From NCBI GenBank assembly GCA_964559675.1, contig CAZLHJ010000002.1, positions 658 to 64,657 on the forward strand: a DNA stretch of 64,000 nt, written 5' to 3'. This DNA is from Candidatus Woesearchaeota archaeon (GTDB lineage: Archaea; Nanobdellota; Nanobdellia; Pacearchaeales; GW2011-AR1). The notes under the pieces were generated by a model that did not search any database, had not been told where the DNA came from, and saw only the letters and a list, made by a program, of their open reading frames with translations. Both the position numbers and the translations under genes were made by a program. Of the stretch, positions 13,308 to 54,233 are shown in pieces (position 1 is the stretch's first letter; each line of letters starts with the position of its first letter).

Positions 13308-13563
13308 GTAGGCAGGGAGTTTGCTCAAACAAAACGTAAAAGCTGACCTTTTACCTTTCTCGGTCTTGCTACCCTACAAGCACCGCTTCTCCTGTTTAGG
13401 GCTGCTCCGATCAAGGCCTGACCCGTTTCGCAGAAGCGCGATCGAATAGGACAAAACGTCAACGTCCGATAAAAGACTTTTACACTTCGTCTCACGCGCT
13501 CCTTTGAAGTCCACTTAAAGCCCACGAGTGAATAGCGCAGGGCTAACGCGCCGACTTGCCTAC
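13308..13563 (-). ncRNA. Signal recognition particle RNA (7S/SRP RNA)
   Basis: A GC-rich block in an AT-rich genome. On the minus strand, the 5' GUAGGCA pairs with the 3' UGCCUAC. Two hairpin loops carry complementary AGCCC and GGGCU, matching Alu-domain loop-loop pairing, and a UGUAA element is present. GGGUCAGGCCUUGAUCGGAGCAGCCC matches the universal helix-8 motif (compare E. coli 4.5S GGUCAGGUCCGGAAGGAAGCAGCC). The track ORF 13325..13525 is an artefact of this RNA. Confidence 0.8.
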
Positions 13564-16477: not shown

Positions 16478-17056
16478 ATGAAAGCTGAAAAAGGAAAGTT
16501 TATAGTTCTCGATTATGAAGGTAGATTAGAAAGTGGAGAAATCTTTGACACCTCTAAACATGGCGATCATTCACATCCATTAACATTTCAATTAGGAGAA
16601 GGGCAGATTATTCCAGGATTCGAGAAGGCAGTTACTGGAATGGATGAAGGTGAAGAAAAAGAGTTTACAATAAAATCTGAAGAAGCTTATGGCGAATACG
16701 ATGAAAATAAAAAACAAGATATTCCAAAATCTTATTTCCCAGAAGACAAGGAAATTAAAGCTGGAAGTGAGATTTTTATTAGTGCCCCAGATGGAAGATC
16801 TCTTCCATTGAAAGTTGTCGATGTAAACGATGAAAATGTCACAATTGATTTGAATCATCCCTTGGCTGGAAAAGATTTAATATTTAAAATAAAAATTTTA
16901 GAAATTAAAGATTCTGCTGAGGATCTGGAACACCAACCACATCATCATGACCACGAGCATTCGGAAGAGAGTGAAGATTCTGAAGAGATAATGGATGAAG
17001 ATTTAGATGAAGGTGAAGAAGATTCAGACGAAGAAGAAGAAGCTAACAATAAGTAA
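16478..17056 (+). CDS. FKBP-type peptidyl-prolyl isomerase (SlyD-like) with His-rich and acidic tail
   Basis: FKBP core LTFQLGEGQIIPGFEKAVTGMDEGEEKEF...LNHPLAGKDLIFKIKILEI. The tail contains HQPHHHDHEH followed by a D/E-rich run. Confidence 0.8.
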   Translation: MKAEKGKFIVLDYEGRLESGEIFDTSKHGDHSHPLTFQLGEGQIIPGFEKAVTGMDEGEEKEFTIKSEEAYGEYDENKKQDIPKSYFPEDKEIKAGSEIFISAPDGRSLPLKVVDVNDENVTIDLNHPLAGKDLIFKIKILEIKDSAEDLEHQPHHHDHEHSEESEDSEEIMDEDLDEGEEDSDEEEEANNK

Positions 17057-20257: not shown

Positions 20258-20512
20258 TTAATACTCATACATTTCATTCCAAGCATTTTCTGCCTTTTTT
20301 GAGAGTTTATCTGCTAAGGAAGGATTACTGCCCCTTACAATTTCTGAGCGAAACTTGTAAATGTCAGATTTTGCACAATAGTAGCTTGCCCTGTCATCTG
20401 AATCTATGTGGATTCCATTTAAAAAATCAGAATATATTTCTCTTATAGTCTTAATAGCAGCAAGATAGAAAATTTTTTTAAGACCTTCTGCTGTTTTTTT
20501 GTCGACTTCCAT
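20258..20512 (-). CDS. Hypothetical helical protein
   Basis: Track ORF. The TATA-like TTAAATAC lies about 17-24 nt upstream of the ATG. Confidence 0.4.
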   Translation of the reverse strand: MEVDKKTAEGLKKIFYLAAIKTIREIYSDFLNGIHIDSDDRASYYCAKSDIYKFRSEIVRGSNPSLADKLSKKAENAWNEMYEY

Positions 20513-20564
20513 TAGAGGTTCTAAGGTTTAGAGTATTTAATGATTATTGTAAAATATTGAGCGT

Positions 20565-20610
20565 ACTCGGCGCTTCGCGCCTCATGAAATAATAGTAGCT
20601 AATTTTTAGG
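20565..20610 (+). repeat. ~46-bp repeat with GC hairpin core, copy A
   Basis: ACTCGGCGCTTCGCGCCTCATGAAATAATAGTAGCTAATTTTTAGG. The core is GGCGC-TTC-GCGCC. Confidence 0.85.
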
Positions 20611-20743
20611 AAATTAACGCGAACTCTGGAATTTTTATATTAATTTTATGATAGAAAGTTCGTTTTATATTTATGCTGGAAGAAATTAGAAATGATAGAA
20701 AGTTTTAGCGCTGGATTTATTAAAAATAAAGAAAAAGGATAAA

Positions 20744-20965
20744 TCAATATTTTGATCTATCCATAGGAGACATTAGTTTAGATATAAGGAAAATCATCCA
20801 AATACCTGAAAGACCTACTAATAGGTAAATGATTAATTCGGCTGTTGGCCACGCTCCAAATATTAGATTTACTAAATTGAAGCCAAAAGCTACTAGTCCC
20901 CAATTAATCGCCCCTATGATTACAAGCACTGTTGCAATCCAGTCAATCGCATTTAAGTTTCTCAT
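20744..20965 (-). CDS. DUF378-type two-TM small membrane protein
   Basis: AIDWIATVLVIIGAINWGLVAFGFNLV...LLVGLSGIW matches the DUF378 pattern as I remember it. It is a paralogue of 21355..21567. Confidence 0.7.
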   Translation of the reverse strand: MRNLNAIDWIATVLVIIGAINWGLVAFGFNLVNLIFGAWPTAELIIYLLVGLSGIWMIFLISKLMSPMDRSKY

Positions 20966-21019
20966 GGAAAAAGTAATGCGTGAAGATTTATTAAAACTCG
21001 TGGTATTTTTAGAACAAAA

Positions 21020-21295
21020 TTATTTTTGTTTTTCTATTTGTTTTTCCTCTTTTTTTCTTCTCCTGAATTCAAGGTTTTGTGCCTTTTGAGAAGCTTTCCC
21101 TATGTATATAGTTACTAAGACTGCTAAAATTGTAACAACTAATGCGTATCCCCAAGGGCCACTTTTTGCTAGGAAACCTAAGGGAGCTCCTTCCTGGAAT
21201 AAAGATTGAATTGCATTATTCCATGCAAGGGCGGCTACCAACCCAAAAGCAGCAGTTGATAATGAGGCGAGTTTTTCTATAACTTCTTTTTTCAT
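21020..21295 (-). CDS. Small membrane protein with AAFGLVAALAWNNAI motif (DUF5654-like)
   Basis: Starts at the internal Met (MKKEVIEKLASLSTAAFGLVAALAWNNAIQSLF). It shares this motif with 21705..22019 and 22022..22276. Confidence 0.6.
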   Translation of the reverse strand: MKKEVIEKLASLSTAAFGLVAALAWNNAIQSLFQEGAPLGFLAKSGPWGYALVVTILAVLVTIYIGKASQKAQNLEFRRRKKEEKQIEKQK

Positions 21296-21354
21296 TTTGA
21301 TAATTAAAAGGTTAAATAAAAAGGTTAAATAAAAATAAAGGTTTTTGTCCAAAT

Positions 21355-21567
21355 TTACTTGAACAACTTAACTAATAACCATAGACCGGATAAACCTACC
21401 AATAGGTAAACTATTGCTGCTACTGCTGGCCATGATCCGAAGACTATAGCTACAAGATCCCAACTGTAATCTATAGCAGAGAAACTGTTTAATCCTACAA
21501 GGCCCCAGTTTAATGCTCCTATGATTACAAGAATAGATGCTATCCAATCAATTGCGCTTCTTTCCAT
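21355..21567 (-). CDS. DUF378-type two-TM small membrane protein
   Basis: AIDWIASILVIIGALNWGLVGLN...LLVGLSGLW. Confidence 0.7.
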   Translation of the reverse strand: MERSAIDWIASILVIIGALNWGLVGLNSFSAIDYSWDLVAIVFGSWPAVAAIVYLLVGLSGLWLLVKLFK

Positions 21568-21670
21568 TTTAAAAACCTCCTTTCATAATGATATTATTTT
21601 GAGGTTTTTGTGCTTTTTATTTGTTTTGGGTTGGTAAAAATGTGTTTAGAAAAAGAAAAACAGGTGTTGA

Positions 21671-21689
21671 GGTGTTTGGACAGGTGTTT
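21671..21689 (+). repeat. 19-mer GGTGTTTGGACAGGTGTTT, copy 1
   Basis: Exact 19-mer in the spacer between two small-membrane-protein genes. Confidence 0.9.
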
Positions 21690-21704
21690 TATCGACGATA
21701 TAGT

Positions 21705-22019
21705 TTATAGGTAGGGTTTATCTTGTAAGTATTTTGAGGTGATTAGGATAATAATAATACCTAAAATAGTCATAAATGTGGCAGTTAAAGCTTGAGATGA
21801 AAGGGCAGATTCTGCTTGATAAAAGTGAGCGAGAATAGCTTGAAAAAAGGTGAAAATAACCTCCCTCCAGACAAATGCAATTGTGAACCCGATAGTCACA
21901 ATGATTAGAAGTCGCATTTGTTTTTTGAATTCTTTTTTGTAATAGTGGCTGACCTGGAATGCGTCTGAGACTCTGTTTTTTAAAGATTTATGACTTGGAG
22001 TTATACGTCTGAATACCAT
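21705..22019 (-). CDS. Small membrane protein, paralogue of 21020..21295
   Basis: FKKQMRLLIIVTIGFTIAFVWREVIF plus a C-terminal TM segment. Confidence 0.55.
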   Translation of the reverse strand: MVFRRITPSHKSLKNRVSDAFQVSHYYKKEFKKQMRLLIIVTIGFTIAFVWREVIFTFFQAILAHFYQAESALSSQALTATFMTILGIIIILITSKYLQDKPYL

Positions 22020-22021
22020 TT

Positions 22022-22276
22022 TTATTTATCTTTTAGAATTTTAGATGTGAGAAATAAAATTATTACTGCAAAAAGAGTGATTGCTAACGCAGTTATGGAT
22101 TCTGTCAAGACAAACTCTGTTGAATTGATTATTTGTCCAATTAGATTCTGTGCAGAATTATAGATTGCATTTCTCCATGCGAAAGCTACAGTAAAACCAA
22201 TTGCTGCGATGATTGCAAGCCTTAATTGTCTCTTGAATTCTTTTTTGAAGGACTTTTTTGTCTTGAATACTTTCAT
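22022..22276 (-). CDS. Small membrane protein, paralogue of 21020..21295
   Basis: FKRQLRLAIIAAIGFTVAFAWRNAIYN plus a C-terminal TM segment. A GGTGA Shine-Dalgarno-like element lies 5 nt upstream of the ATG at 22276. The track start at 22285 is an alternative. Confidence 0.6.
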   Translation of the reverse strand: MKVFKTKKSFKKEFKRQLRLAIIAAIGFTVAFAWRNAIYNSAQNLIGQIINSTEFVLTESITALAITLFAVIILFLTSKILKDK

Positions 22277-22342
22277 TTTTATCACCTAATTTCTCTCAAA
22301 ATTGTATAAGGATAGTTGGTTTTTATATGTATTGTACGGCGC

Positions 22343-22389
22343 ACTCGGCGCTTCGCGCCTCATGGAATAATTGTGGCTAAATTTGTAAG
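22343..22389 (+). repeat. ~46-bp repeat with GC hairpin core, copy B
   Basis: ACTCGGCGCTTCGCGCCTCATGGAATAATTGTGGCTAAATTTGTAAG. The first 22 nt are identical to copy A. Confidence 0.85.
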
Positions 22390-22428
22390 ATTGTGGGGCG
22401 CGAGAGTTCGTTTAATTTTACATAAAAA

Positions 22429-22447
22429 GGTGTTTGGACAGGTGTTT
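22429..22447 (+). repeat. 19-mer GGTGTTTGGACAGGTGTTT, copy 2
   Basis: Exact copy in the divergent spacer 22286..22718. Confidence 0.9.
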
Positions 22448-22551
22448 GAAACAATTGTAAAAGATTAAAAGTTTTAGCTAAGATTAGATTAAATGAGTTT
22501 TTTAGGTGTTTTTTTATAAATTTATTTATCGTCGATAAACAGGTGTTTTGG

Positions 22552-22570
22552 GGTGTTTGGACAGGTGTTT
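22552..22570 (+). repeat. 19-mer GGTGTTTGGACAGGTGTTT, copy 3
   Basis: Exact copy in the same spacer. Confidence 0.9.
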
Positions 22571-22718
22571 TTATTAATTATAGGGGTGTTTAAAAATTAT
22601 TTTTGTTTTTTTTGTGGTGTTTGGTGGTGTTTTTTTAATCTTTTATTAAAAAACAAATTTGGTATTTTTACGGCTTCTAGTAGTAAAATTTATAAAGAAT
22701 GCTGTTTAAAATAAGAGT

Positions 22719-23327
22719 ATGTTTTTCTGGAATTCAAAAAAAAGAATTGAGAAGATTGAGGAAAATACTCAAAAAGGATTTGATTCTGTAAAAAAGGATA
22801 TGGATGTGATTGGAAAATGGATTAAACACCTTGATAGGCAAGACAAACAGGTGTTTGATATTTTAAATTCTTTAAAATTGGATTTATCGTCTATTCAAGA
22901 AGAGGTTGAAAGTTTAAGAGAAGCGGTTGATTTAATTTCTGATTCTGAAAAAAACAAACAGGTGTTTAAAAAATTGCCTGTTTTGAGTAAACAGACAGGT
23001 GTTGAAGGTGTTCAAAAAGCTGTCCAAACAGCTGTCCAAACAGACAATTTTTACGAAATTTTCAAAAACTTAAGTGGAAATGAAAAAATTTTAATTTTGG
23101 CACTCATGCAAGCGGATATGAAGTTGAGTTATGAAGATTTGTCTTTAATGTTGGGAAAAGAGAGATCAACAATAAGGGGACAAGTAAATGCGATTAAGCA
23201 GAAAAATGAGGGTTTGATTGAAGAAATTGTTGAAAAATCGGGTAAAAAAAGAGTATATATTCCTGAAGAAATTAAGGAAAAACTGTCAAAATACGCAAAA
23301 GTGAGAGTTAAAAAGAGGAAGAATTGA
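22719..23327 (+). CDS. Coiled-coil / short-repeat / C-terminal winged-helix protein (family member 1)
   Basis: N-terminal coiled coil (GFDSVKKDMDVIGKWIKHLDRQ). The centre holds KQVF and AVQT repeats. The C-terminal wHTH-like part reads LSGNEKILILALMQADMKLSYEDLSLMLGKERSTIRGQVNAIKQK. Confidence 0.6.
   Translation: MFFWNSKKRIEKIEENTQKGFDSVKKDMDVIGKWIKHLDRQDKQVFDILNSLKLDLSSIQEEVESLREAVDLISDSEKNKQVFKKLPVLSKQTGVEGVQKAVQTAVQTDNFYEIFKNLSGNEKILILALMQADMKLSYEDLSLMLGKERSTIRGQVNAIKQKNEGLIEEIVEKSGKKRVYIPEEIKEKLSKYAKVRVKKRKN
23020..23042 (-). repeat. Tandem inverted copies of the TGTTTGGACAG core inside CDS 22719..23327
   Basis: The plus strand reads CTGTCCAAACAGCTGTCCAAACA, which is the reverse complement of TGTTTGGACAG twice. 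Confidence 0.85.
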
Positions 23328-23344
23328 GGTTAAACGAACTTAAA

Positions 23345-23628
23345 ATGGCTAAAAACATGAAAAGTGAGAGTTATTCTGAAAGAAAATCGTCTAATTTTCA
23401 AGAAAAGTTACAAGAAGTGAGAGATATTTTGAGAAAATTGGATGTAATAGATAGGTGGAAAGCAGGTGTAAAAAATTTGAAAGATTTTGAATAAAAATGA
23501 TCAAAAAAAGAGAAAAAAAGCTAATAGATTGGAAGAGTTGAGTGAAAAATTCAAAAAGTGAGGGAATATTGGAAAGAGAGATCAATTTTCCTGAGGAATT
23601 GAGTGAAAAACTAGAAAGTGTGAGCTAA
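23345..23628 (+). pseudogene. Decayed third copy of the coiled-coil/wHTH family
   Basis: 23345..23494 encodes a 49-aa N-terminal fragment; LQEVRDILRKLDVIDRWKAGV resembles VKKDMDVIGKWIKHL. 23542..23628 encodes ...SEGILEREINFPEELSEKLESVS*, which resembles the member-1 C-terminus NEGLIEEIVEKSGKKRVYIPEEIKEKLS. The wHTH middle part is missing. Confidence 0.45.
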
Positions 23629-23775
23629 AGATATTTGGCTTTATATGGTCTAAAAAGCCTAAATTTGAGGCTTTTGGAGTGTTTCACAATTGGAGAAATG
23701 AAAATAGACATAATTGTAATTAGATATTCGTTTAAAAGAATAACTAAAATAAATTTTAGATAAAATAGTAATTTT

Positions 23776-24561
23776 TTATAGACTTCTGAGTTGAATTAAT
23801 GTGGGAAGAGAGACTATTTTTCTTAATGAATTCGAGAGAGATAAGAAGATTTTCTTATTATTTTCTCTGATTTTTTCTATAGGTATTCCTTTTTTTAGAA
23901 TTCTTTGTATATAATCCCGTATCGAAGACTCAGTTAGATTAAGAGTTGTTGAGAGCATTAAATAATCGACGATAAATCCTTTTTCTTCTAATTCATAGAG
24001 GGTTTGCAATACTTGCATCTCTTGATTGGTAAGCTTCTTTACTTTAGATCTGAGTTCTTTCTTAATATCATCTAAAGAGGCTAAAAATTCTGAGAGTTGG
24101 TGGAGTTTGTCCACTCGGATTTGGGCCTTATGTGTTGGAATATGTGTCGAAGAATGTGTCGAATTATAGGATTGTGCGAACTTGACCCCTTCATTTCCTG
24201 TCGAAGTGTCTGTCTGTTGGTCTGTCTGTCTGTCTGTCGAAACCCCCTTATTTCTTGTGGAAATGTCTAAATTTGAGCTTTTTACGCGTTCTAGAGGCAA
24301 ATTACCTGTCGAAGAATGTGTCGAAAGGTCTTTTTCTGTTTGATTTACTTGTTCTTGAGTTGGATTAATCTGTCGAAGTGTCTGTCTAATTGTTGGATTA
24401 TTCGTTGGATTGATTGTCTGTCTGTCTAAAGTTCGTTTTAGTTCTCTAATTTCATTTGTTAGATTAGAAATCTCTGATTGTATGTCTAGAATATCTTGTT
24501 TCACCTTTGCAAATGCGTCTTTTATAGCGTCAGCCATGTTTTTTAGAACTGACTTAAGCAT
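23776..24561 (-). CDS. Coiled-coil / short-repeat / C-terminal winged-helix protein (family member 2)
   Basis: The N-terminus AFAKVKQDILDIQSEI...TLDRQ aligns with member 1. The centre is repetitive (STHSST, DRQTDQQTD, INPT). The C-terminal part is LTNQEMQVLQTLYELEEKGFIVDYLMLSTTLNLTESSIRDYIQRILKKG. Confidence 0.6.
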   Translation of the reverse strand: MLKSVLKNMADAIKDAFAKVKQDILDIQSEISNLTNEIRELKRTLDRQTINPTNNPTIRQTLRQINPTQEQVNQTEKDLSTHSSTGNLPLERVKSSNLDISTRNKGVSTDRQTDQQTDTSTGNEGVKFAQSYNSTHSSTHIPTHKAQIRVDKLHQLSEFLASLDDIKKELRSKVKKLTNQEMQVLQTLYELEEKGFIVDYLMLSTTLNLTESSIRDYIQRILKKGIPIEKIRENNKKIFLSLSNSLRKIVSLPTLIQLRSL

Positions 24562-24642
24562 ATAAAGATTATTATAAAGAGATTATAGCTTTTAGTTGAC
24601 TTAGGAGAATAGATTTATAAACAGTTTAAAAGTTGTTTTTTT

Positions 24643-24960
24643 ATGGGAAGAGCAGTAATCTTGGTCGGAAAATTAAATCATATATCTGAGAGTTATCAGT
24701 TTATGATTGGTCTAGAGTATTCCTCAGGCATTTATATTGGTTCAGAAGATAGGGCACAATTTTACGATGAATTTTCAGATTTTATTGTTCAAAAAGTTTT
24801 GAATTTTGGTTCTAATCTCCAATTGGGGGTATTGAATGGTTGGAGAATTGGTGAAGCGGGGAATGAACGAATAGGAAAACTTGAAGAACATTTAGTTGAA
24901 AAACTTTCGGGAATTGTGAAGAGAAAGATTATAGAAAATACCTCTTCGCAATCTATATGA
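24643..24960 (+). CDS. Hypothetical protein
   Basis: Track ORF. TTTATAAA lies about 24 nt upstream of the ATG. Confidence 0.4.
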   Translation: MGRAVILVGKLNHISESYQFMIGLEYSSGIYIGSEDRAQFYDEFSDFIVQKVLNFGSNLQLGVLNGWRIGEAGNERIGKLEEHLVEKLSGIVKRKIIENTSSQSI

Positions 24961-25272: not shown

Positions 25273-25485
25273 GTGTTTGAGGAAAGAGAAGATATGGATG
25301 ATTTTTATTTACCTGAAATAATTAATAGGGGGGAAGAGATTGTTTTTGAGAGTTTAGTAAACCCTGATCCTTCTTTGAGATACAGGATTATTCATGAGGG
25401 TCGTAATGACATTTATAATAAGTTGGTTGAATTAGAGGAGAATAGATCTTCTGAAAGAGTTAAACTTGATGTCTTCCTGAATTAA
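25273..25485 (+). CDS. Hypothetical protein (GTG start)
   Basis: Track ORF only. Confidence 0.3.
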   Translation: MFEEREDMDDFYLPEIINRGEEIVFESLVNPDPSLRYRIIHEGRNDIYNKLVELEENRSSERVKLDVFLN

Positions 25486-25760
25486 TTGAATTTATTTAAT
25501 TTTGAATATATTTCATATGCTTCTTTTGTAAGGGTCCAACGTTGACGTCTTTTATAGTCTAAACCTAGAGAATTTTTATTAATTTCTGAGACTAAATTCT
25601 TTTTCTTAAGATCTGATAGAATAGATTTTGTGAATTCTTCATCCCGGGCGATTTCTTGTGCAATTTTATTGGTGAATTGTGCTGAAGGAGATGTTGAAAA
25701 TAAGTAATGTAGGATTTGTTCTGAAATCTTTTGAATCTTTTGTTGAGATATTTTGGGCAT
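25482..25760 (-). CDS. Small winged-helix DNA-binding protein
   Basis: 92 aa. ISEQILHYLFSTSPSAQFTNKIAQEIARDEEFTKSILSDLKKKNLVSEI...RRQRWTLTKEAYEIY follows a helix-turn-helix plus wing pattern. Confidence 0.55.
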   Translation of the reverse strand: MPKISQQKIQKISEQILHYLFSTSPSAQFTNKIAQEIARDEEFTKSILSDLKKKNLVSEINKNSLGLDYKRRQRWTLTKEAYEIYSKLNKFN

Positions 25761-30999: not shown

Positions 31000-31027
31000 C
31001 TCCCCCACCCTTGCGTTTCTTATGGAA
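31000..31027 (-). promoter_or_regulatory. ORB-like origin recognition box 1
   Basis: The minus strand reads TTCCATAAGAAACGCAAGGGTGGGGGAG, that is TTCCA...GAAA plus a G-string. Confidence 0.75.
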
Positions 31028-31080
31028 AAATAATAAACTTTAAATAAGGAAGACTTTCTTTTCTTTTTCTATTTTTCTTT

Positions 31081-31140
31081 TTTAAATATATATATTATAT
31101 ATTATATATTATATTATATATAATTATAAAGTATATGTTA
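31081..31140. other. AT-only DNA unwinding element
   Basis: TTTAAATATATATATTATATATTATATATTATATTATATATAATTATAAAGTATATG contains only two G and no C. Confidence 0.7.
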
Positions 31141-31184
31141 TAGTTCGTATTAATTTGAGACGTATTAATTTGTTATTTATTTAG

Positions 31185-31210
31185 TTCCATAAGAAGTGTA
31201 GGTGTGGGTG
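31185..31210 (+). promoter_or_regulatory. ORB-like origin recognition box 2
   Basis: TTCCATAAGAAGTGTAGGTGTGGGTG. Confidence 0.7.
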
Positions 31211-31263
31211 TAGATTTATTGTTTTTGTATTTATTCATTATTTTTCGAGGATAATTAAATAAA

Positions 31264-31289
31264 TTCCATGAGAAATAACGGTTGGTGTG
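31264..31289 (+). promoter_or_regulatory. ORB-like origin recognition box 3
   Basis: TTCCATGAGAAATAACGGTTGGTGTG. Confidence 0.6.
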
Positions 31290-31341
31290 CAGATAAGTTT
31301 ATATATGAAAATAAGTTTAACAAATTATCAAAGAGGTTGAA

Positions 31342-32547
31342 ATGGACAAATTAGATTCGATATTTAATTCTTATGTAGAAAATAAATTATTTACTAATAA
31401 GACTGTTCTTCAATCTAATTATACTCCAGACACCATCCCTCATAGAAATGCGCAAATAGAAAGTGTTGCTTCCATACTAGCTCCATCATTACGTGGAGAA
31501 AAAGTAAGTAATTTATTTGTTTATGGGAAAACTGGAAGTGGTAAGACATTAAGTGTTCAACACGTTGGAAACAGAATAAAGGAAAAGATGAAAGAACTCG
31601 GACATGATCATTTAAGATTTTTATACGTTAATTGCAAATTAAAAAAAGTTGCAGACACAGAATATAGGATTATTGCAGAGTTGATAAAAGAATTAGGCGG
31701 GAGTGTTCCAGCTACAGGTTTACCTACAGATGAGGTTTATTCAAGATTCATTGATATGGTAGATAGTAAGAAGCAAGTTATATTATTGGTATTAGATGAA
31801 ATAGATCAAGCTGTTAAGAAAATTTCAGATAATTTCATCTATACATTAACTAGAGTTAATTCAGATTTAAAAAATGCTCAGATTAGCCTGATAGGTATTA
31901 GTAACAGTTTGACATTCATGGATAATTTAGACCCTAGGGTAAAAAGTAGTTTAGGAGAAGAAGAATTAGTTTTTCCACCTTATAATGCTTTACAATTACA
32001 AGATATTTTAAGGGAGAGGGCTGAGAGTGCTTTTAAGGAAGGGATTTTACAGGAAGGAGTGTTGTCTAAATGTGCAGCATATGCTGCAAGAGAGCATGGG
32101 GATGCAAGGAGGGCTTTAGATTTACTAAGGGTAGCTGGCGAGTTAGCCGAAAGAGAGGGCAGTGAGAAAATCAAATTGGAACATATTGATATGGCTAATC
32201 AAAAAATAGAGAAAGATAAGATGTTAGATATAATTGAAAGTGAACCTACACAATTCCAACTAGTTCTTTACTCAATAATGTTATTAACAGAAAATAAAGG
32301 TAAAGATGGAATTTACACAGGAGATGTTTATAGTATGTATGAATCAATATGTAATAAAACAAAAAGTGAAATTTTAACCCAAAGAAGAGTTTCAGATATT
32401 TTATCTGAGTTTGATATGTTAGGTATAATTAATGTGAGTGTAGTAAGCAAAGGAAGACATGGAAGGACTAGAGAAATAAAGTTGATGTTAGCACCCAATA
32501 TAAAAGAAAAGGCCAAAGAAATTTTGGAAAAATCATTACATATATGA
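31342..32547 (+). CDS. cdc6: Orc1/Cdc6 replication initiator
   Basis: AAA+ Walker A YGKTGSGKT, Walker B LVLDEID, the sensor region and a C-terminal winged helix (GRHGRTREI). Confidence 0.9.
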   Translation: MDKLDSIFNSYVENKLFTNKTVLQSNYTPDTIPHRNAQIESVASILAPSLRGEKVSNLFVYGKTGSGKTLSVQHVGNRIKEKMKELGHDHLRFLYVNCKLKKVADTEYRIIAELIKELGGSVPATGLPTDEVYSRFIDMVDSKKQVILLVLDEIDQAVKKISDNFIYTLTRVNSDLKNAQISLIGISNSLTFMDNLDPRVKSSLGEEELVFPPYNALQLQDILRERAESAFKEGILQEGVLSKCAAYAAREHGDARRALDLLRVAGELAEREGSEKIKLEHIDMANQKIEKDKMLDIIESEPTQFQLVLYSIMLLTENKGKDGIYTGDVYSMYESICNKTKSEILTQRRVSDILSEFDMLGIINVSVVSKGRHGRTREIKLMLAPNIKEKAKEILEKSLHI

Positions 32548-48820: not shown

Positions 48821-48921
48821 TTTTTTAATTGTTTAGGGATTTATATAAGGGTTTTGGTTCGAGGGAAGTATATATTTTCTGAAAGCATAAAGTATAAAAA
48901 CGGGTGTTTTTTGAGTATACC

Positions 48922-49212
48922 ATGCTTAGAATAAAGAAACTCAGCGAGGTGGTCGGAAAAAACGTCTATACCTCTGAAGGAGATTACTTCGGACAAGTAG
49001 AGGAAGTTAACTTAGTTGACAATAAAGTGGATGGTTGGAAAATCAAAATTGGGAGTGGTTTCATCAGCATGTTTGGTGGAGCAAGAGGAGTTATAATCCC
49101 TCACCAGTTTGTTAGAGCAATTGGAGATATAATGGTTGTTAATAAGGGAAGTTTACCTGGAAAGGAAGAAAGTGTTAATTTTGAATCTGAAGAAGTAGAA
49201 GAAATCGCTTAA
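48922..49212 (+). CDS. PRC-barrel domain protein
   Basis: VVGKNVYTSEGDYFGQVEEVNLVDNKVDGWKI...IIPHQFVRAIGDIMVV. The track start at 48904 is an alternative. Confidence 0.6.
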   Translation: MLRIKKLSEVVGKNVYTSEGDYFGQVEEVNLVDNKVDGWKIKIGSGFISMFGGARGVIIPHQFVRAIGDIMVVNKGSLPGKEESVNFESEEVEEIA

Positions 49213-51892: not shown

Positions 51893-51965
51893 AAAGAGTT
51901 TAAAAATTCTTTTAATTATAGAAATGTATTTTAAGAGGTGTTTTTTAATTCTAAAGAGGTGAAAT

Positions 51966-54233
51966 ATGTTTAATCAAACTTCTGAACTATACAAAACTGA
52001 AATTGAAAGAAGACAGGGCGAAAACTTGATGTATATTAATTATATGCAAGCACCATATGTTCCAAGTTTAGTTGAAAATTCAGATGTGATGGCTAGGACG
52101 ATAGACTCTTTAGTAGAAAATCCTAATGCCTCTAGGATAATTTTTGTTCAACAAAGAAATTATAGTTATAATTTTGAACAAACTTATTTATTATTGGAAA
52201 TAGCAGGATTATTTAATTTCTTAATTAAACAAGAGAATATTTTGTCTCAAGAAAAATTAAGTTTGTTTGGAAATATTTCTGAAGTTTATCCTGATTTAGC
52301 GCTTCTTTTAGATTTATTGAAAAAGGATCCTGTAAAATCTTATTCTGAAATAAATCTTAGAGTAAATATGTTAAGGAAAAAATTAGATAAGGGAGAGTTT
52401 TCAAATAGAGGGAATTTATTGAATTATATTAGGTTTTTAGAGAGGTTCAAGGGTTTATTGGAATCAACAAAATTAATGAAGGAAGTTTTGACTAAGTATT
52501 CAGATTATGGAAGTGGAAGAGAAGTTTACAGGGAATTATTTAGACCAGATATTTTACCTAATTTCACTTTTACAAGATTAGTTGCACAATTGCCGAGGAA
52601 TTCAGATTTAATTGACCAGTATAGTGTAAGGAGTAATGATGAAGATATAGAAGTTACAATTCTTAAATTGAGAGATAAAGGAGTTTTCTTTTATCACGTT
52701 ATGGCTCCAGAGTATAGTTTGAGTGAGGATCACCATATGTTATTAAATTTGGCAAGAAATGTCTTAACAGAGCATAGGCCAAAAGCAGAGGAGTTTACAG
52801 ATCCCGAAAGAATAAGGCAAGTTTTCTTTAATATTTCAAAAGGATTGTTGGGAGATTTATCTAAGAGTAAAGGAGTAGATTTGAGCTATAGGGAGTTAGA
52901 GAAACTTGCAAGAATTTTGGTTCGACATACTATCGGTTTTGGCTTGATAGAAATTTTATTAGCAGATGAAAAATTACAAGATATTGTGTTAAATGCTCCA
53001 ATTGCACAAAATCCTGTTTTTGTTAGACATGCAGAATTTGAGGAGTGCGCAACGAATATAATCCCAAGTTATGAGGATGCAGATTCGTGGGCTGCAAAAT
53101 TGAGATTACAAAGCGGAAGAGCATTAGATGAAGCAAATCCAGTTTTAGACACTGATCTTAATTTTGGAATCGTAAGAGCAAGAGTAGCAGCAATAAAAGA
53201 GCCATTAAGTCCACAAGGATTAGCATATGCATTTAGAAGGCATAGGGATAATCCGTGGACATTGCCTTTGTTTATTGATAGGGGAATGATTAATAGTTTC
53301 GGGGCAGGATTATTGAGCTTTTTAATAGACGGGAGTAGAACCTTATTGGTTGCAGGTACGAGGAGCGCTGGAAAGACTTCTCTTTTAGGAAGTTTAATGC
53401 TTGAGATTATGCCAAAATATAGGGTAATTGTGGTTGAAGATACACAAGAATTGCCAATAGAAGCTTTACGAAAAATAGGGTATAATATCTTGGGGATGAA
53501 AGTTAGAAGTGCTTTGGTAAGCGGAAGTACTGAAATAGAAGCATCTGAAGGAATTAGAACTAGTTTAAGGTTGGGAGATAGTGCGTTAATAGTTGGAGAG
53601 GTTAGGAGTAGCGAAGCTAAGGCATTATACGAGGCTATGAGGGTTGGAGCTCTTGCTAATGTAGTTGCAGGAACAATTCATGGTGATTCTCCATACGGGG
53701 TTTTTGATAGAGTTGTTAATGATTTGGGGGTAGAGAGGACTAGTTTCAAAGCAACAGATATTATCGTTGTTACAAATCCTGTTAAGAGTGCAGACGGATT
53801 ACATTCAAAAAGAAGAGTTGTTCAAATTACAGAAATTAGAAAACACTGGGAGGGAGATCCTTTGGCTGAAGGAGGATTTGTGGATTTAATGAAATATAAT
53901 GTTGAAAAAGATGAATTGGAACCGACTCAAGAGTTAATAAATGGAGATTCAGAGATAATCAAAAGTATTGCTTCGAATGTTAAGGAGTGGGCTGGAAATT
54001 GGGACGCTGTTTTTGATAATATTATTTTGAGAGGTAAGATGAAACAAGAAATTGTAGACATAGCAAGAAAAATGAATAAACCTATATTGATGGAAGCAGA
54101 ATTTAATTCGCTATGTAATGCTGCATTTCATAGAATAAGCGAGGAATTAAAGGAAAAAGAATCAAAAATGGATTCGGAGTTAGTTTTTAAGAATTGGAAA
54201 AATTGGATTAGTAAAAAAGCAGAAGAATTTTAA
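51966..54233 (+). CDS. Type II/IV secretion-family ATPase (FlaI/PilB/VirB11-like) with long N-terminal extension
   Basis: Walker A GTRSAGKTS, Walker B-like VIVVEDTQE, and GEVRSSEA. 755 aa, with Walker A only at about residue 465. Confidence 0.85.
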   Translation: MFNQTSELYKTEIERRQGENLMYINYMQAPYVPSLVENSDVMARTIDSLVENPNASRIIFVQQRNYSYNFEQTYLLLEIAGLFNFLIKQENILSQEKLSLFGNISEVYPDLALLLDLLKKDPVKSYSEINLRVNMLRKKLDKGEFSNRGNLLNYIRFLERFKGLLESTKLMKEVLTKYSDYGSGREVYRELFRPDILPNFTFTRLVAQLPRNSDLIDQYSVRSNDEDIEVTILKLRDKGVFFYHVMAPEYSLSEDHHMLLNLARNVLTEHRPKAEEFTDPERIRQVFFNISKGLLGDLSKSKGVDLSYRELEKLARILVRHTIGFGLIEILLADEKLQDIVLNAPIAQNPVFVRHAEFEECATNIIPSYEDADSWAAKLRLQSGRALDEANPVLDTDLNFGIVRARVAAIKEPLSPQGLAYAFRRHRDNPWTLPLFIDRGMINSFGAGLLSFLIDGSRTLLVAGTRSAGKTSLLGSLMLEIMPKYRVIVVEDTQELPIEALRKIGYNILGMKVRSALVSGSTEIEASEGIRTSLRLGDSALIVGEVRSSEAKALYEAMRVGALANVVAGTIHGDSPYGVFDRVVNDLGVERTSFKATDIIVVTNPVKSADGLHSKRRVVQITEIRKHWEGDPLAEGGFVDLMKYNVEKDELEPTQELINGDSEIIKSIASNVKEWAGNWDAVFDNIILRGKMKQEIVDIARKMNKPILMEAEFNSLCNAAFHRISEELKEKESKMDSELVFKNWKNWISKKAEEF

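Follow-up and report, generated by a model that had tools for sequence, protein, structure and literature searches.

A dense array of short DNA repeats around the start of a winged-helix gene was analyzed in a 64-kb stretch from a Candidatus Woesearchaeota archaeon (contig CAZLHJ010000002.1, G+C ~31%), hereafter termed the window. The repeats lie upstream of gene A (22719–23327, + strand) and continue into its coding sequence. Their pattern of conservation across orthologous loci indicates that they are duplex-DNA protein-binding sites under strong purifying selection, and the most economical reading is that they serve as operator or iteron-type sites for the adjacent winged-helix protein, one of the candidates proposed in an initial annotation of this DNA. 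We assign a probability of roughly 0.55 to the view that the repeats constitute one composite operator array for gene A, through which product A would regulate its own expression. The category itself, an operator or iteron-like array, is known; what appears to be new is the extent to which the array is written into the regulator's own coding sequence, its conservation across 80 genomes, and its membership in an origin-proximal mosaic of motifs.

The repeats are overrepresented words. The 9-mer ACAGGTGTT occurs eight times in the window, always on the + strand and between 21660 and 23003, whereas dinucleotide-preserving shuffles gave a mean of 0.21 copies and a maximum of 2. The 19-mer GGTGTTTGGACAGGTGTTT recurs exactly at 21671, 22429, and 22552, and two further copies with three mismatches lie on the − strand at 23014 and 23026. 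The shorter word GGTGTTT is found 21 times against 6.97 expected, with 14 of the 21 copies located within 21671–22967; the seven copies outside the locus approximate the number expected by chance for the entire window (6.97). Exact copies of the 11-mer TGTTTGGACAG are present on the − strand at 23020 and 23032, where the coding sense reads AVQTAVQT, and the palindrome TATCG(A/T)CGATA is exact at 21690 and 22527. Two intragenic ACAGGTGTT copies (22847 and 22958) translate as K-Q-V-F, and a third (22995), read in another frame, as T-G-V. Successive GGTGTTT starts in the spacer are separated by 12, 64, 37, 10, 12, 21, 31, and 10 nucleotides (nt), mostly multiples of ~10.5. This enrichment is far beyond chance and local to the gene A locus. 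A dispersed genomic repeat of the repetitive extragenic palindromic or miniature inverted-repeat transposable element type (REP/MITE-like) was rejected, as the remainder of the window is at chance level and the flanks of 80 orthologous loci are at background. The counts of the 9-, 11-, and 19-mers, GGTGTTT, and the palindromes in the initial annotation were all reproduced, as were its observations that two intragenic 9-mers encode KQVF and that an inverted tandem 11-mer underlies AVQTAVQT. Its additional GGTGTTT units exist, with two coordinates corrected (22615 to 22616 and 22624 to 22626). Of its TATCG-type palindromes, the two exact copies stand; the variant at 23964 contains one mismatch, is not conserved in orthologues of the neighboring gene B, and is probably a chance match.

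Comparison of 80 orthologous gene A loci, one per species, revealed that the upstream part of the array is fixed in position and orientation. The unit G[GC]TGTTT is present within 300 nt before the ATG in all 80 loci, and GGTGTTT in this interval totals 295 copies on the gene strand versus 3 on the opposite strand; other 100-nt bins contain ~0–4 copies summed over all 80 loci. Unit-to-unit spacing peaks at 10–12, 21, and 31–32 nt (78 loci), which places the units on one face of the double helix. The palindrome AAACAG[C/G]TGTTT starts at a median position of −151 (interquartile range −173 to −150), and the dyad AAAC[AG]G[CGT]TGTT is found upstream in 69 of 77 loci, the version in the window being partly degenerate. 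The elements follow a conserved order, consisting of TTATCG(N)CGATAA, 3–5 nt, GGTGTTT, 3 nt, GGTGTTTAAACAGCTGTTT, more G[GC]TGTTT units, TAGGGCTTAAAA.CGCAA, the TATA box, and the ATG. Where orthologues carry an exact TATCG-type palindrome, its end usually falls 3–5 nt before the first G[GC]TGTTT. The motif is hence kept in position, strand, and helical phase upstream of the 80 orthologues.

In the window, the proximal array spans −290 to −87. It begins with the second copy of the 19-mer (AAAAAGGTGTTTGGACAGGTGTTT, 22424–22447, + strand), ~290 nt before the ATG, followed by a lone GGTGTTT unit (22505–22511, + strand). A strandless palindrome with a free central base (TATCGTCGATA, 22527–22537) then abuts AAACAGGTGTTT, the first element of the array core (22537–22570, + strand), which is composed of AAACAGGTGTTT, tgg, and GGTGTTTGGACAGGTGTTT and whose equivalent in most orthologues is GGTGTTTnnnGGTGTTTAAACAGCTGTTT; the window carries GGTGTTTGGACAGGTGTTT where most orthologues carry GGTGTTTAAACAGCTGTTT. 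Three more GGTGTTT units (22585, 22616, and 22626; 22585–22632, + strand) are positioned 21, 31, and 10 nt after the preceding unit. The core promoter (22689–22707, + strand) contains the TATA box TTTATAAA (22689–22696, −30 to −23) and a GCTGTTT (22701–22707) before the ATG; the proximal array is upstream of the TATA box. The basic unit can be described as G[G/C]TGTT(T), two inverted copies of which produce AAACAG[C/G]TGTTT, a palindrome typical of a dimer site. The palindromes accompanying the TGTTT units are AAACAGSTGTTT and the flanking TATCGNCGATA. A distal composite site (21658–21700, + strand), comprising AAACAGGTGTTG and then GGTGTTTGGACAGGTGTTT abutting the palindrome TATCGACGATA, is flanked by two − strand genes for small membrane proteins of the DUF378 (21355–21567) and DUF5654 (21705–22019) families. 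A further-upstream G[GC]TGTTT cluster of this kind, 0.45–3 kb upstream, was found in 15 loci including the window, mostly among small-membrane-protein genes, and in four of these (the window, L019, L068, and L080) a TATCGNCGATA-type palindrome is located beside it.

In 71 of 77 orthologues, the TATA box begins at −30, and other genes in the window likewise display a TATA box ~30 nt before the ATG. By archaeal promoter geometry, this arrangement implies a leaderless mRNA, which would leave the upstream array outside the transcript. In the interval from the TATA box to the ATG, at approximately −17, 26 of 77 orthologues carry a G[GC]TGTTT unit. GGTGTTT as a generic promoter element was considered and rejected, given that a unit occupies this position in only 3 of ~75 window genes. 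Besides gene A, these are 48922–49212 (unit at 48903–48909), which encodes 96 amino acids (aa) with no family match and a PRC-barrel-like appearance by eye, and a FlaI/T2SSE-type ATPase gene (51966–54233; unit at 51937–51943). The latter two genes may be further targets or chance matches, and they are too weak to serve as evidence for a regulon.

The same elements recur inside gene A. A first intragenic group (22824–22895, strandless) mirrors the upstream composite site and includes AAACACC(TT) at 22824 (K36-H37-L38), AAACAGGTGTTT at 22845–22856 (K43–F46), and the palindrome TTATCGTCTATT at 22884–22895 (L56–I59), which is degenerate in this genome. The second group (22953–23043, strandless) occupies the linker DNA and contains AACAAACAGGTGTTT at 22953, CCTGTTT at 22977, AAACAGACAGGTGTT at 22989, GGTGTTC at 23007, and GCTGTCCAAACAGCTGTCCAAACAG at 23019–23043, forming a tandem array over codons 79–108 with 12-nt spacing. 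Relative to the start, the mirror composite extends from +105 to +177 and the tandem array from +235 to +325. Codons 36–59 present the reverse complement of GGTGTTT, then AAACAGCTGTTT, then TTATCGTCGATA, which is the mirror image of the upstream order, and the AAACAG.TGTTT palindromes, with starts at approximately −151 and +126, are placed almost symmetrically around the transcription start.

When the 80 orthologues were aligned by codon and observed codon frequencies were set against background, these intragenic copies proved to be conserved at synonymous positions, with near-invariant codons precisely at the matches to the spacer motifs. K36-H37-L38 is encoded by AAA CAC CTT in 96/93/81% (66/28/25% background), the reverse complement of AAGGTGTTT. 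The AAACAGCTGTTT palindrome underlies K43-Q44-L45-F46, where AAA CAG CTG TTT is observed in 100/100/90/100% (CTG background 7%). For L56-S57-S58-I59 (TTA TCG TCG ATa), corresponding to the TTATCGTCGATA palindrome, TCG is used in 89% and 85% against 8%. N79–F83 (AAC AAA CAG GTG TTT) matches AACAAACAGGTGTTT, with GTG in 100% versus 15%; K91–V95 (AAA CAa ACA GCT GTT) matches AAACAAACAGCTGTT at 79–99%; and V98–T108 (GTT CAA aaa GCT GTt CAA ACA GCT GTt CAA ACA) matches a tandem AAACAGCTGTT at 76–100%, the variable codon 100 excluded. Within the linker group (~79–108), most of the conserved codons are fixed in 76–100% of orthologues, with Q92 at 79%, V106 at 76%, and L89 split between TTA and TTG. 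Codons of the winged-helix domain show normal wobble, with up to four synonymous codons per site. Mean codon entropy is 0.37 bit for motif codons (1.50 expected), 1.06 for other codons, and 1.16 for the winged-helix domain, and where two orthologues have an amino acid in common, the same codon is used in 85% of cases at motif codons versus 54% in the winged-helix domain. Since the frozen codons are rare ones (background of 7% for CTG, 15% for GTG, 8% for TCG, and 28% for CAC), translational selection is not the cause. A possible covariation between the unusual upstream variant of the window, TTTGGACAG, and the synonymous GTC at V102/V106 was not significant (4/8 versus 16/72, Fisher p = 0.10).

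Where the protein does vary, it does so along lines set by the motif. At residue 45, 55 orthologues have Leu (CTG) and 13 have Val (GTG); at residue 82, 40 have Val (GTG) and 27 have Leu (CTG). Ala (GCT), Gly (GGT), or Pro (CCT) accounts for most orthologues at residues 94, 101, and 105 (70, 64, and 78 of 80, respectively), and a third base other than T is found there in only 3, 1, and 0 orthologues. Amino acid variation thus stays within the degeneracy of the motif. The most invariant stretch, AVQTAVQT, lies in a segment predicted to be disordered (predicted local distance difference test, pLDDT, <50), and the conserved entity appears to be the DNA word rather than the peptide. A DNA-level function, as argued in the initial annotation, is borne out by the conserved spacer layout together with the frozen synonymous sites, in the comparison of orthologous loci that the annotation had itself suggested as a check, and the orthologous genes keep the motif.

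Conservation of the peptides DKQ[LV]FD, NKQVFKK, and AVQTAVQT, and the presence of xQT repeats in paralogue B as well, could be explained by a pure protein repeat (KQVF, VQT) whose likeness to the spacer is coincidental or arose by recent duplication or gene conversion. Protein selection, however, fixes no synonymous third positions and favors no rare codons, and one 9-mer is used here in two reading frames. Dissimilar residues (Ala/Gly/Pro) alternate exactly where the motif allows G or C, three spacer motifs rather than one recur in the coding sequence, and conservation persists across A proteins with a median identity of 60%. The initial annotation had already deemed a purely protein-repeat origin less likely; with synonymous sites frozen, rare codons favored, and two frames in use, we consider the chance of such an origin negligible.

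A constraint acting on RNA was also considered. The repeats would then be binding or pairing elements of the mRNA, or of an antisense or overlapping noncoding RNA, for example through GGUGUUU pairing with AAACACC. The strict upstream strand bias (295 versus 3) is in keeping with such a role, and an 11-base-pair hairpin can form in the window between AAACACC (22824) and GGUGUUU (22850). Against this stands the leaderless transcript implied by the TATA box at −30, which would exclude the upstream array from the mRNA if the promoter geometry holds. A 10.5-nt period and loop-less palindromes are, moreover, properties of duplex DNA. Compensatory change was not observed, as codon 37 CAC co-occurs with codon 45 CTG in 48 loci or GTG in 8; the coding segment folds with a z-score of only −1.16; and Rfam returned no match in 20400–24700 at E ≤ 1. 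RNA-level constraint is consequently a very improbable explanation. A known RNA family was likewise rejected, since Rfam yielded nothing in 20400–24700 and the only match in the window is the signal recognition particle (SRP) RNA at 13308–13563. This − strand gene matches the bacterial large SRP model (62.5 bits; gathering score 60) in an otherwise archaeal genome.

The composite site is nearly restricted to one locus. An exact scan of metagenome contigs for the orthologue core 19-mer GGTGTTTAAACAGCTGTTT, blind to gene content, retrieved 130 sites on 120 contigs, 107 of which precede an A orthologue on the same strand by <500 nt. For ten of the 130 sites, too little of the contig remains to judge. 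Among the remaining 13, seven share their contig with an A homologue (the site lying within A, being an additional upstream copy, or accompanying a more distant homologue), five belong to unrelated DNA (three GC-rich), and one (L195) is a typical array without a detectable A homologue. GGTGTTTAAACAGCTGTTT is therefore almost confined to the gene A locus in metagenomes. Rather than recurring at similar density genome-wide, as a generic repeat would, the motif is locus-specific in both the window and the metagenome scan.

Gene A encodes a 202-aa protein with an N-terminal helix, a low-confidence linker, and a C-terminal winged helix-turn-helix, and is the candidate binder of the array. More than 2000 homologues were retrieved, and the 80 retained species-level orthologues, from metagenome-assembled genomes of Pacearchaeota, Woesearchaeota, and Nanoarchaeota, are 49–72% identical to A. 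Gene A is a core gene of Pacearchaeota/Woesearchaeota. AlphaFold predicts a long helix (residues 4–78), a segment with pLDDT <50 (78–109), and a winged helix-turn-helix (97–197), for which the closest structures are Lrs14/AbfR2, ArsR/SmtB, and MarR proteins. The best matches of the C-terminal domain are 6cmv (E = 4e-4) and NF053606 Sta1 (E = 0.003). No curated family matched A above threshold, with HTH_AsnC, Sta1, and Lrs14 as the only sub-threshold matches. Lrs14/Sta1/AbfR-type regulators hence resemble A in being the best structural and weak sequence matches to its C-terminal domain, all below family thresholds, but these families have no counterpart to its N-terminal 75-residue helix or to its motif-encoding linker. 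No description of the A family or its motif was found in the literature searches made.

These features suggest a model in which A would dimerize or oligomerize through its 75-residue coiled coil and bind TGTTT units cooperatively through its winged helix. The upstream and intragenic arrays could then be coated or bridged so that the promoter and the beginning of the leaderless transcript are enclosed, with tight, concentration-dependent autorepression via an upstream and an intragenic operator as the predicted outcome. The distal site at 21658–21700 would extend this control to the adjacent small-membrane-protein genes, and the TATCGNCGATA palindrome may be read by a conserved neighbor, B or C. 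As the sites have to be retained, the motif dictates codons of A and, in the disordered linker, some amino acids as well. A as the binder, repression as the effect, and looping or bridging between the two arrays are each conjectural parts of this model. The locus does present what an operator should, namely fixed sites in the gene's own promoter region, a dyad site, and selected sites in the transcribed region.

Several points weigh against an autoregulatory operator. With a unit between the TATA box and the ATG in only 26 of 77 orthologues, simple promoter occlusion is not universal. The central palindrome is partly degenerate in the window itself (GGACAGGTGTTT, compared with AAACAGCTGTTT in most orthologues). 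The set of motif codons was delimited after inspection of the alignment, which renders the Mann–Whitney p value of 1.4e-11 for their low codon entropy somewhat optimistic and leaves the single codon counts unaffected. The binder could alternatively be B, C, Orc1, or an unlinked protein; matching motifs to proteins by presence or absence was tried and provided no contrast, as C is present in all 66 loci with enough flank and B in 79 of 81. The array, with 5–10 upstream units, two palindromes, and ~7 intragenic sites, is far more elaborate than usual autoregulation. Finally, the wider motif mosaic, which includes AAAAGTGAGAGTT repeats and an origin recognition box in gene B, and an oriC 3–9 kb away hint at a role beyond transcription.

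Classical precedents for upstream plus intragenic operators are the Escherichia coli gal OE/OI pair, with OI inside galE, and lac O1/O2, with O2 inside lacZ. Gene A shares with these systems the placement of sites for a single (here putative) regulator on both sides of the transcription start, one set in coding DNA, and looping is the natural model. The difference is that entire arrays of ~6 upstream and ~7 intragenic units, with at least two motif types, lie within the putative regulator's own gene and leave a synonymous-site footprint across 80 species-level genomes.

The DNA directly upstream of the array harbors five tiny membrane-protein genes (20744–22285; two DUF378 and three DUF5654), and DUF5654 genes occupy that position in 36 of 81 loci. 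In the same region, the GC-rich inverted repeat GGCGC-TTC-GCGCC occurs exactly twice (22347–22359 and 20569–20581; 0 expected). Each copy is part of a conserved element of ~45 nt (..GCGC..TCGGCGCTTCGCGCCTCA..ATTATTGTGGCTAAT), also observed in ~10 of 40 orthologous loci inspected, and sits 55–85 nt upstream of a − strand gene, 22022–22285 (DUF5654 membrane protein) or 20258–20512 (uncharacterized). The ~45-nt element has no Rfam match. In seven loci (L002, L010, L012, L013, L017, L020, and L026), another hairpin-like element (..GAAGAGGTTTAATC..n..GATCAAACGTCTTC..GGGAAAAAGAGGCGATA), ~250–400 nt upstream of the gene A orthologue, takes the place held by the GC-rich element in other loci. This GAAGAGGTTTAATC-type element may be a small RNA gene.

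Downstream of the array, a second repeat family begins in the last codons of A and continues through the A–B spacer. The repeat AAAAGTGAG(A/G)G(TT) is found on the + strand at 23298, 23361, 23414, 23555, and 23615 (23298–23624), and AAAAGTGAG(A/G)GTT totals 317 copies in 81 loci (mean 3.9 per locus), exclusively on the + strand and with irregular spacing of ~30–100 nt. The C-terminal codons of A that underlie a AAAAGTGAG repeat are also frozen (GTG 100% versus 15% background). The A–B spacer additionally displays a conserved hairpin, GAGGAAAAATTGGA...ATCAATTTTTCTGA(T/G)G (~23560–23600), and TTAAACGAAC boxes. Gene B (23776–24561, − strand), convergent with A, encodes a remote paralogue of A with the same architecture. 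The paralogy claimed in the initial annotation is supported by profile–profile comparison (hhalign probability 93.9%, E = 1.5e-7) and goes undetected by pairwise BLASTP, which gave no significant match. Gene C (25482–25760, − strand; 92 aa) has no family match and resembles a small winged helix by eye only. It is present in every locus with enough flank, and one of the other motifs may be its binding site.

The linker DNA of B contains the best origin recognition box match in the window, better than those at oriC itself (TTCCACAAGAAATAAGGGG, 24244–24262, − strand), along with a half-copy of the box 57 nt away (24187–24205, − strand) and (GACA)n. This box is present in 63 of 79 orthologues, in one frame, as (T)TTCCAnnGGAAAynnnGGGGTTCC followed by (ACAG)n or (ACAA)n, and B residues vary (T/I/S/K/N; K/E/R/D/N/G/Q) exactly at the unspecified box positions. 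The canonical oriC with orc1/cdc6 is located at 31004–32547 (+ strand). Its boxes (31009–31027, − strand; 31185–31203 and 31264–31282, + strand), of the form TTCCATAAGAA...GGTG.GGG, are inverted around a (TA)n unwinding element (31079–31142), and orc1 (31342–32547) is followed by the PolD small subunit and a 1630-aa open reading frame (ORF), which is the PolD large subunit by comparison with L201. The L201 origin displays the same layout at 16731–17041. In this clade, a GGTGT-type G-string often closes the origin recognition box, as in AGGTGTGGGTGT (window) and GGTGTGGGTGTTT (L201). The array as a replication origin was rejected, with the canonical oriC at 31.0–31.2 kb, ~8 kb away; the array has no origin recognition box dyad TTCCAnnGGAAA with G-string, and the inverted boxes and unwinding element are at oriC. 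The GC-skew profile mainly reflects gene orientation and is not discriminating.

A–B–C synteny is observed in 73–79 of 81 loci, and orc1 is often close by. It starts 3.2–3.7 kb after the A start in four loci (L074, L076, L078, and L079), and ~4.2 kb after it in L068, where the match is truncated at the end of the locus. The distance is 7.1 kb in L201, 8.6 kb in the window, and >10 kb in L202. These distances and the box in B raise a less likely but serious alternative, or complement, in which the repeats belong to an origin-proximal architectural, partition, or replication-control element. A nucleoprotein complex of A, B, C, and Orc1 beside oriC would act as a centromere-like anchor or couple origin firing to regulator level, with autoregulation as a by-product. 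Conserved synteny, the 3.2–8.6-kb distance to orc1 in at least 8 genomes, and the DNA-level conservation of the B box in 63 of 79 orthologues are consistent with this alternative. The composite site is also essentially single-locus, like a centromere or origin element and unlike a regulon operator, motifs cover ~2.6 kb of coding and noncoding DNA, and, in the window, the point at which gene orientation changes on a large scale coincides with the spacer upstream of A. Conversely, neither the 43 scanned window ORFs nor the genes of L201–L203 with Pfam annotation included a ParA, SegA, or TubZ-type nucleoside triphosphatase, and proximity to orc1 is perhaps inherited synteny, given the >10-kb distance in L202. 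GGTGTTT does not contain the TTCCA..GGAAA dyad of Orc1, which leaves no direct Orc1 link to the A arrays.

In its most specific form, this alternative would make A, B, C, and their DNA a Pacearchaeota/Woesearchaeota-specific origin-proximal nucleoprotein organizer, a proposal we regard as speculative. Orc1 would bind the box in the B linker, A would coat the TGTTT arrays, and a third factor would read the AAAAGTGAGAGTT repeats. Such a 2.6-kb complex beside oriC would couple replication initiation or origin segregation to regulator dosage, and the disordered linkers of A and B would be by-products in which the DNA motif is selected and the peptide follows.

Known centromere-like sites offer partial parallels. 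Bacterial parS lies inside spo0J/parB, tubC consists of direct repeats bound by TubR, and archaeal AspA and SegB sites are situated upstream of their operons. The likeness is in locus-specific, origin-proximal repeats by or in a gene whose product is a small DNA-binding protein, potentially able to spread or oligomerize; the difference is that here the scanned window ORFs and the Pfam-annotated L201–L203 genes yielded no partner ATPase or GTPase. The Sulfolobus ucm origin element is bound by UBP, a saddle-shaped dimer with hundreds of genomic sites (PMC12141716). Ucm resembles the present case as an element near an archaeal origin read by a noninitiator protein (putatively so here), whereas the array contains no TTCCA..GGAAA dyad, is 3–9 kb from the unwinding element, and is essentially single-locus.

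Iteron plasmids provide a further comparison. pPS10 RepA, F RepE, and R6K pi each combine iterons with an inverted-repeat operator at their rep genes, the direct repeats binding monomers for initiation and the inverted repeat binding dimers for autorepression. The gene A locus is similar in its helically phased direct repeats and an inverted repeat of the same half-site near the promoter of a winged-helix gene, and the AT-richness of its flanking DNA also fits. It could thus be read as a second, iteron-type origin or the remnant of an integrated replicon with A as the initiator. Iteron plasmids, however, use 17–22-bp repeats and proteins with two winged-helix domains, whereas the core here is 7 nt and A has one winged helix plus a coiled coil, with no Rep family match in Pfam, NCBIfam, or PHROGs. 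There is no (TA)n-type unwinding element beside the array and no plasmid or virus relative, and the locus is chromosomal, vertically conserved, and syntenic, in a core region with a complete, canonical oriC nearby. Genomes of this group are typically ~1 Mb, and a second origin 3–9 kb from the first would have no obvious rationale. An iteron-type origin is accordingly quite unlikely.

A mobile element or plasmid origin was also rejected. No tRNA genes were found in the window, GGTGTTTAAACAGCTGTTT had no match in viral contigs, tblastn of gene A against plasmids gave no match, and no PHROG family was found for A. The window carries ordinary archaeal housekeeping genes, which include Rad50/Mre11-like, ArgRS, FttA, a proteasome subunit, RecJ/GAN-like, Lhr, Orc1/Cdc6, and PolD. 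The suggestion in the initial annotation of a plasmid-like replication or partition site or island did not hold up, in view of the chromosomal core synteny and the lack of phage or plasmid relatives, a Rep match, or a ParA-type ATPase in the searches above.

An autoregulatory operator array for gene A remains the preferred reading, and its interest extends beyond a single promoter. DPANN archaea are uncultivated, and their gene regulation and chromosome control are almost unknown. This locus provides a testable cis-regulatory code, with phylogenetically validated motifs at exact spacings and positions. It is also a striking case of overlapping codes, in which binding sites override codon choice and, apparently, amino acid choice in predicted disordered linkers. 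Tied to oriC and to an Orc1-type box in a neighboring coding sequence, the locus offers an entry to replication control and origin organization in genome-reduced archaea.

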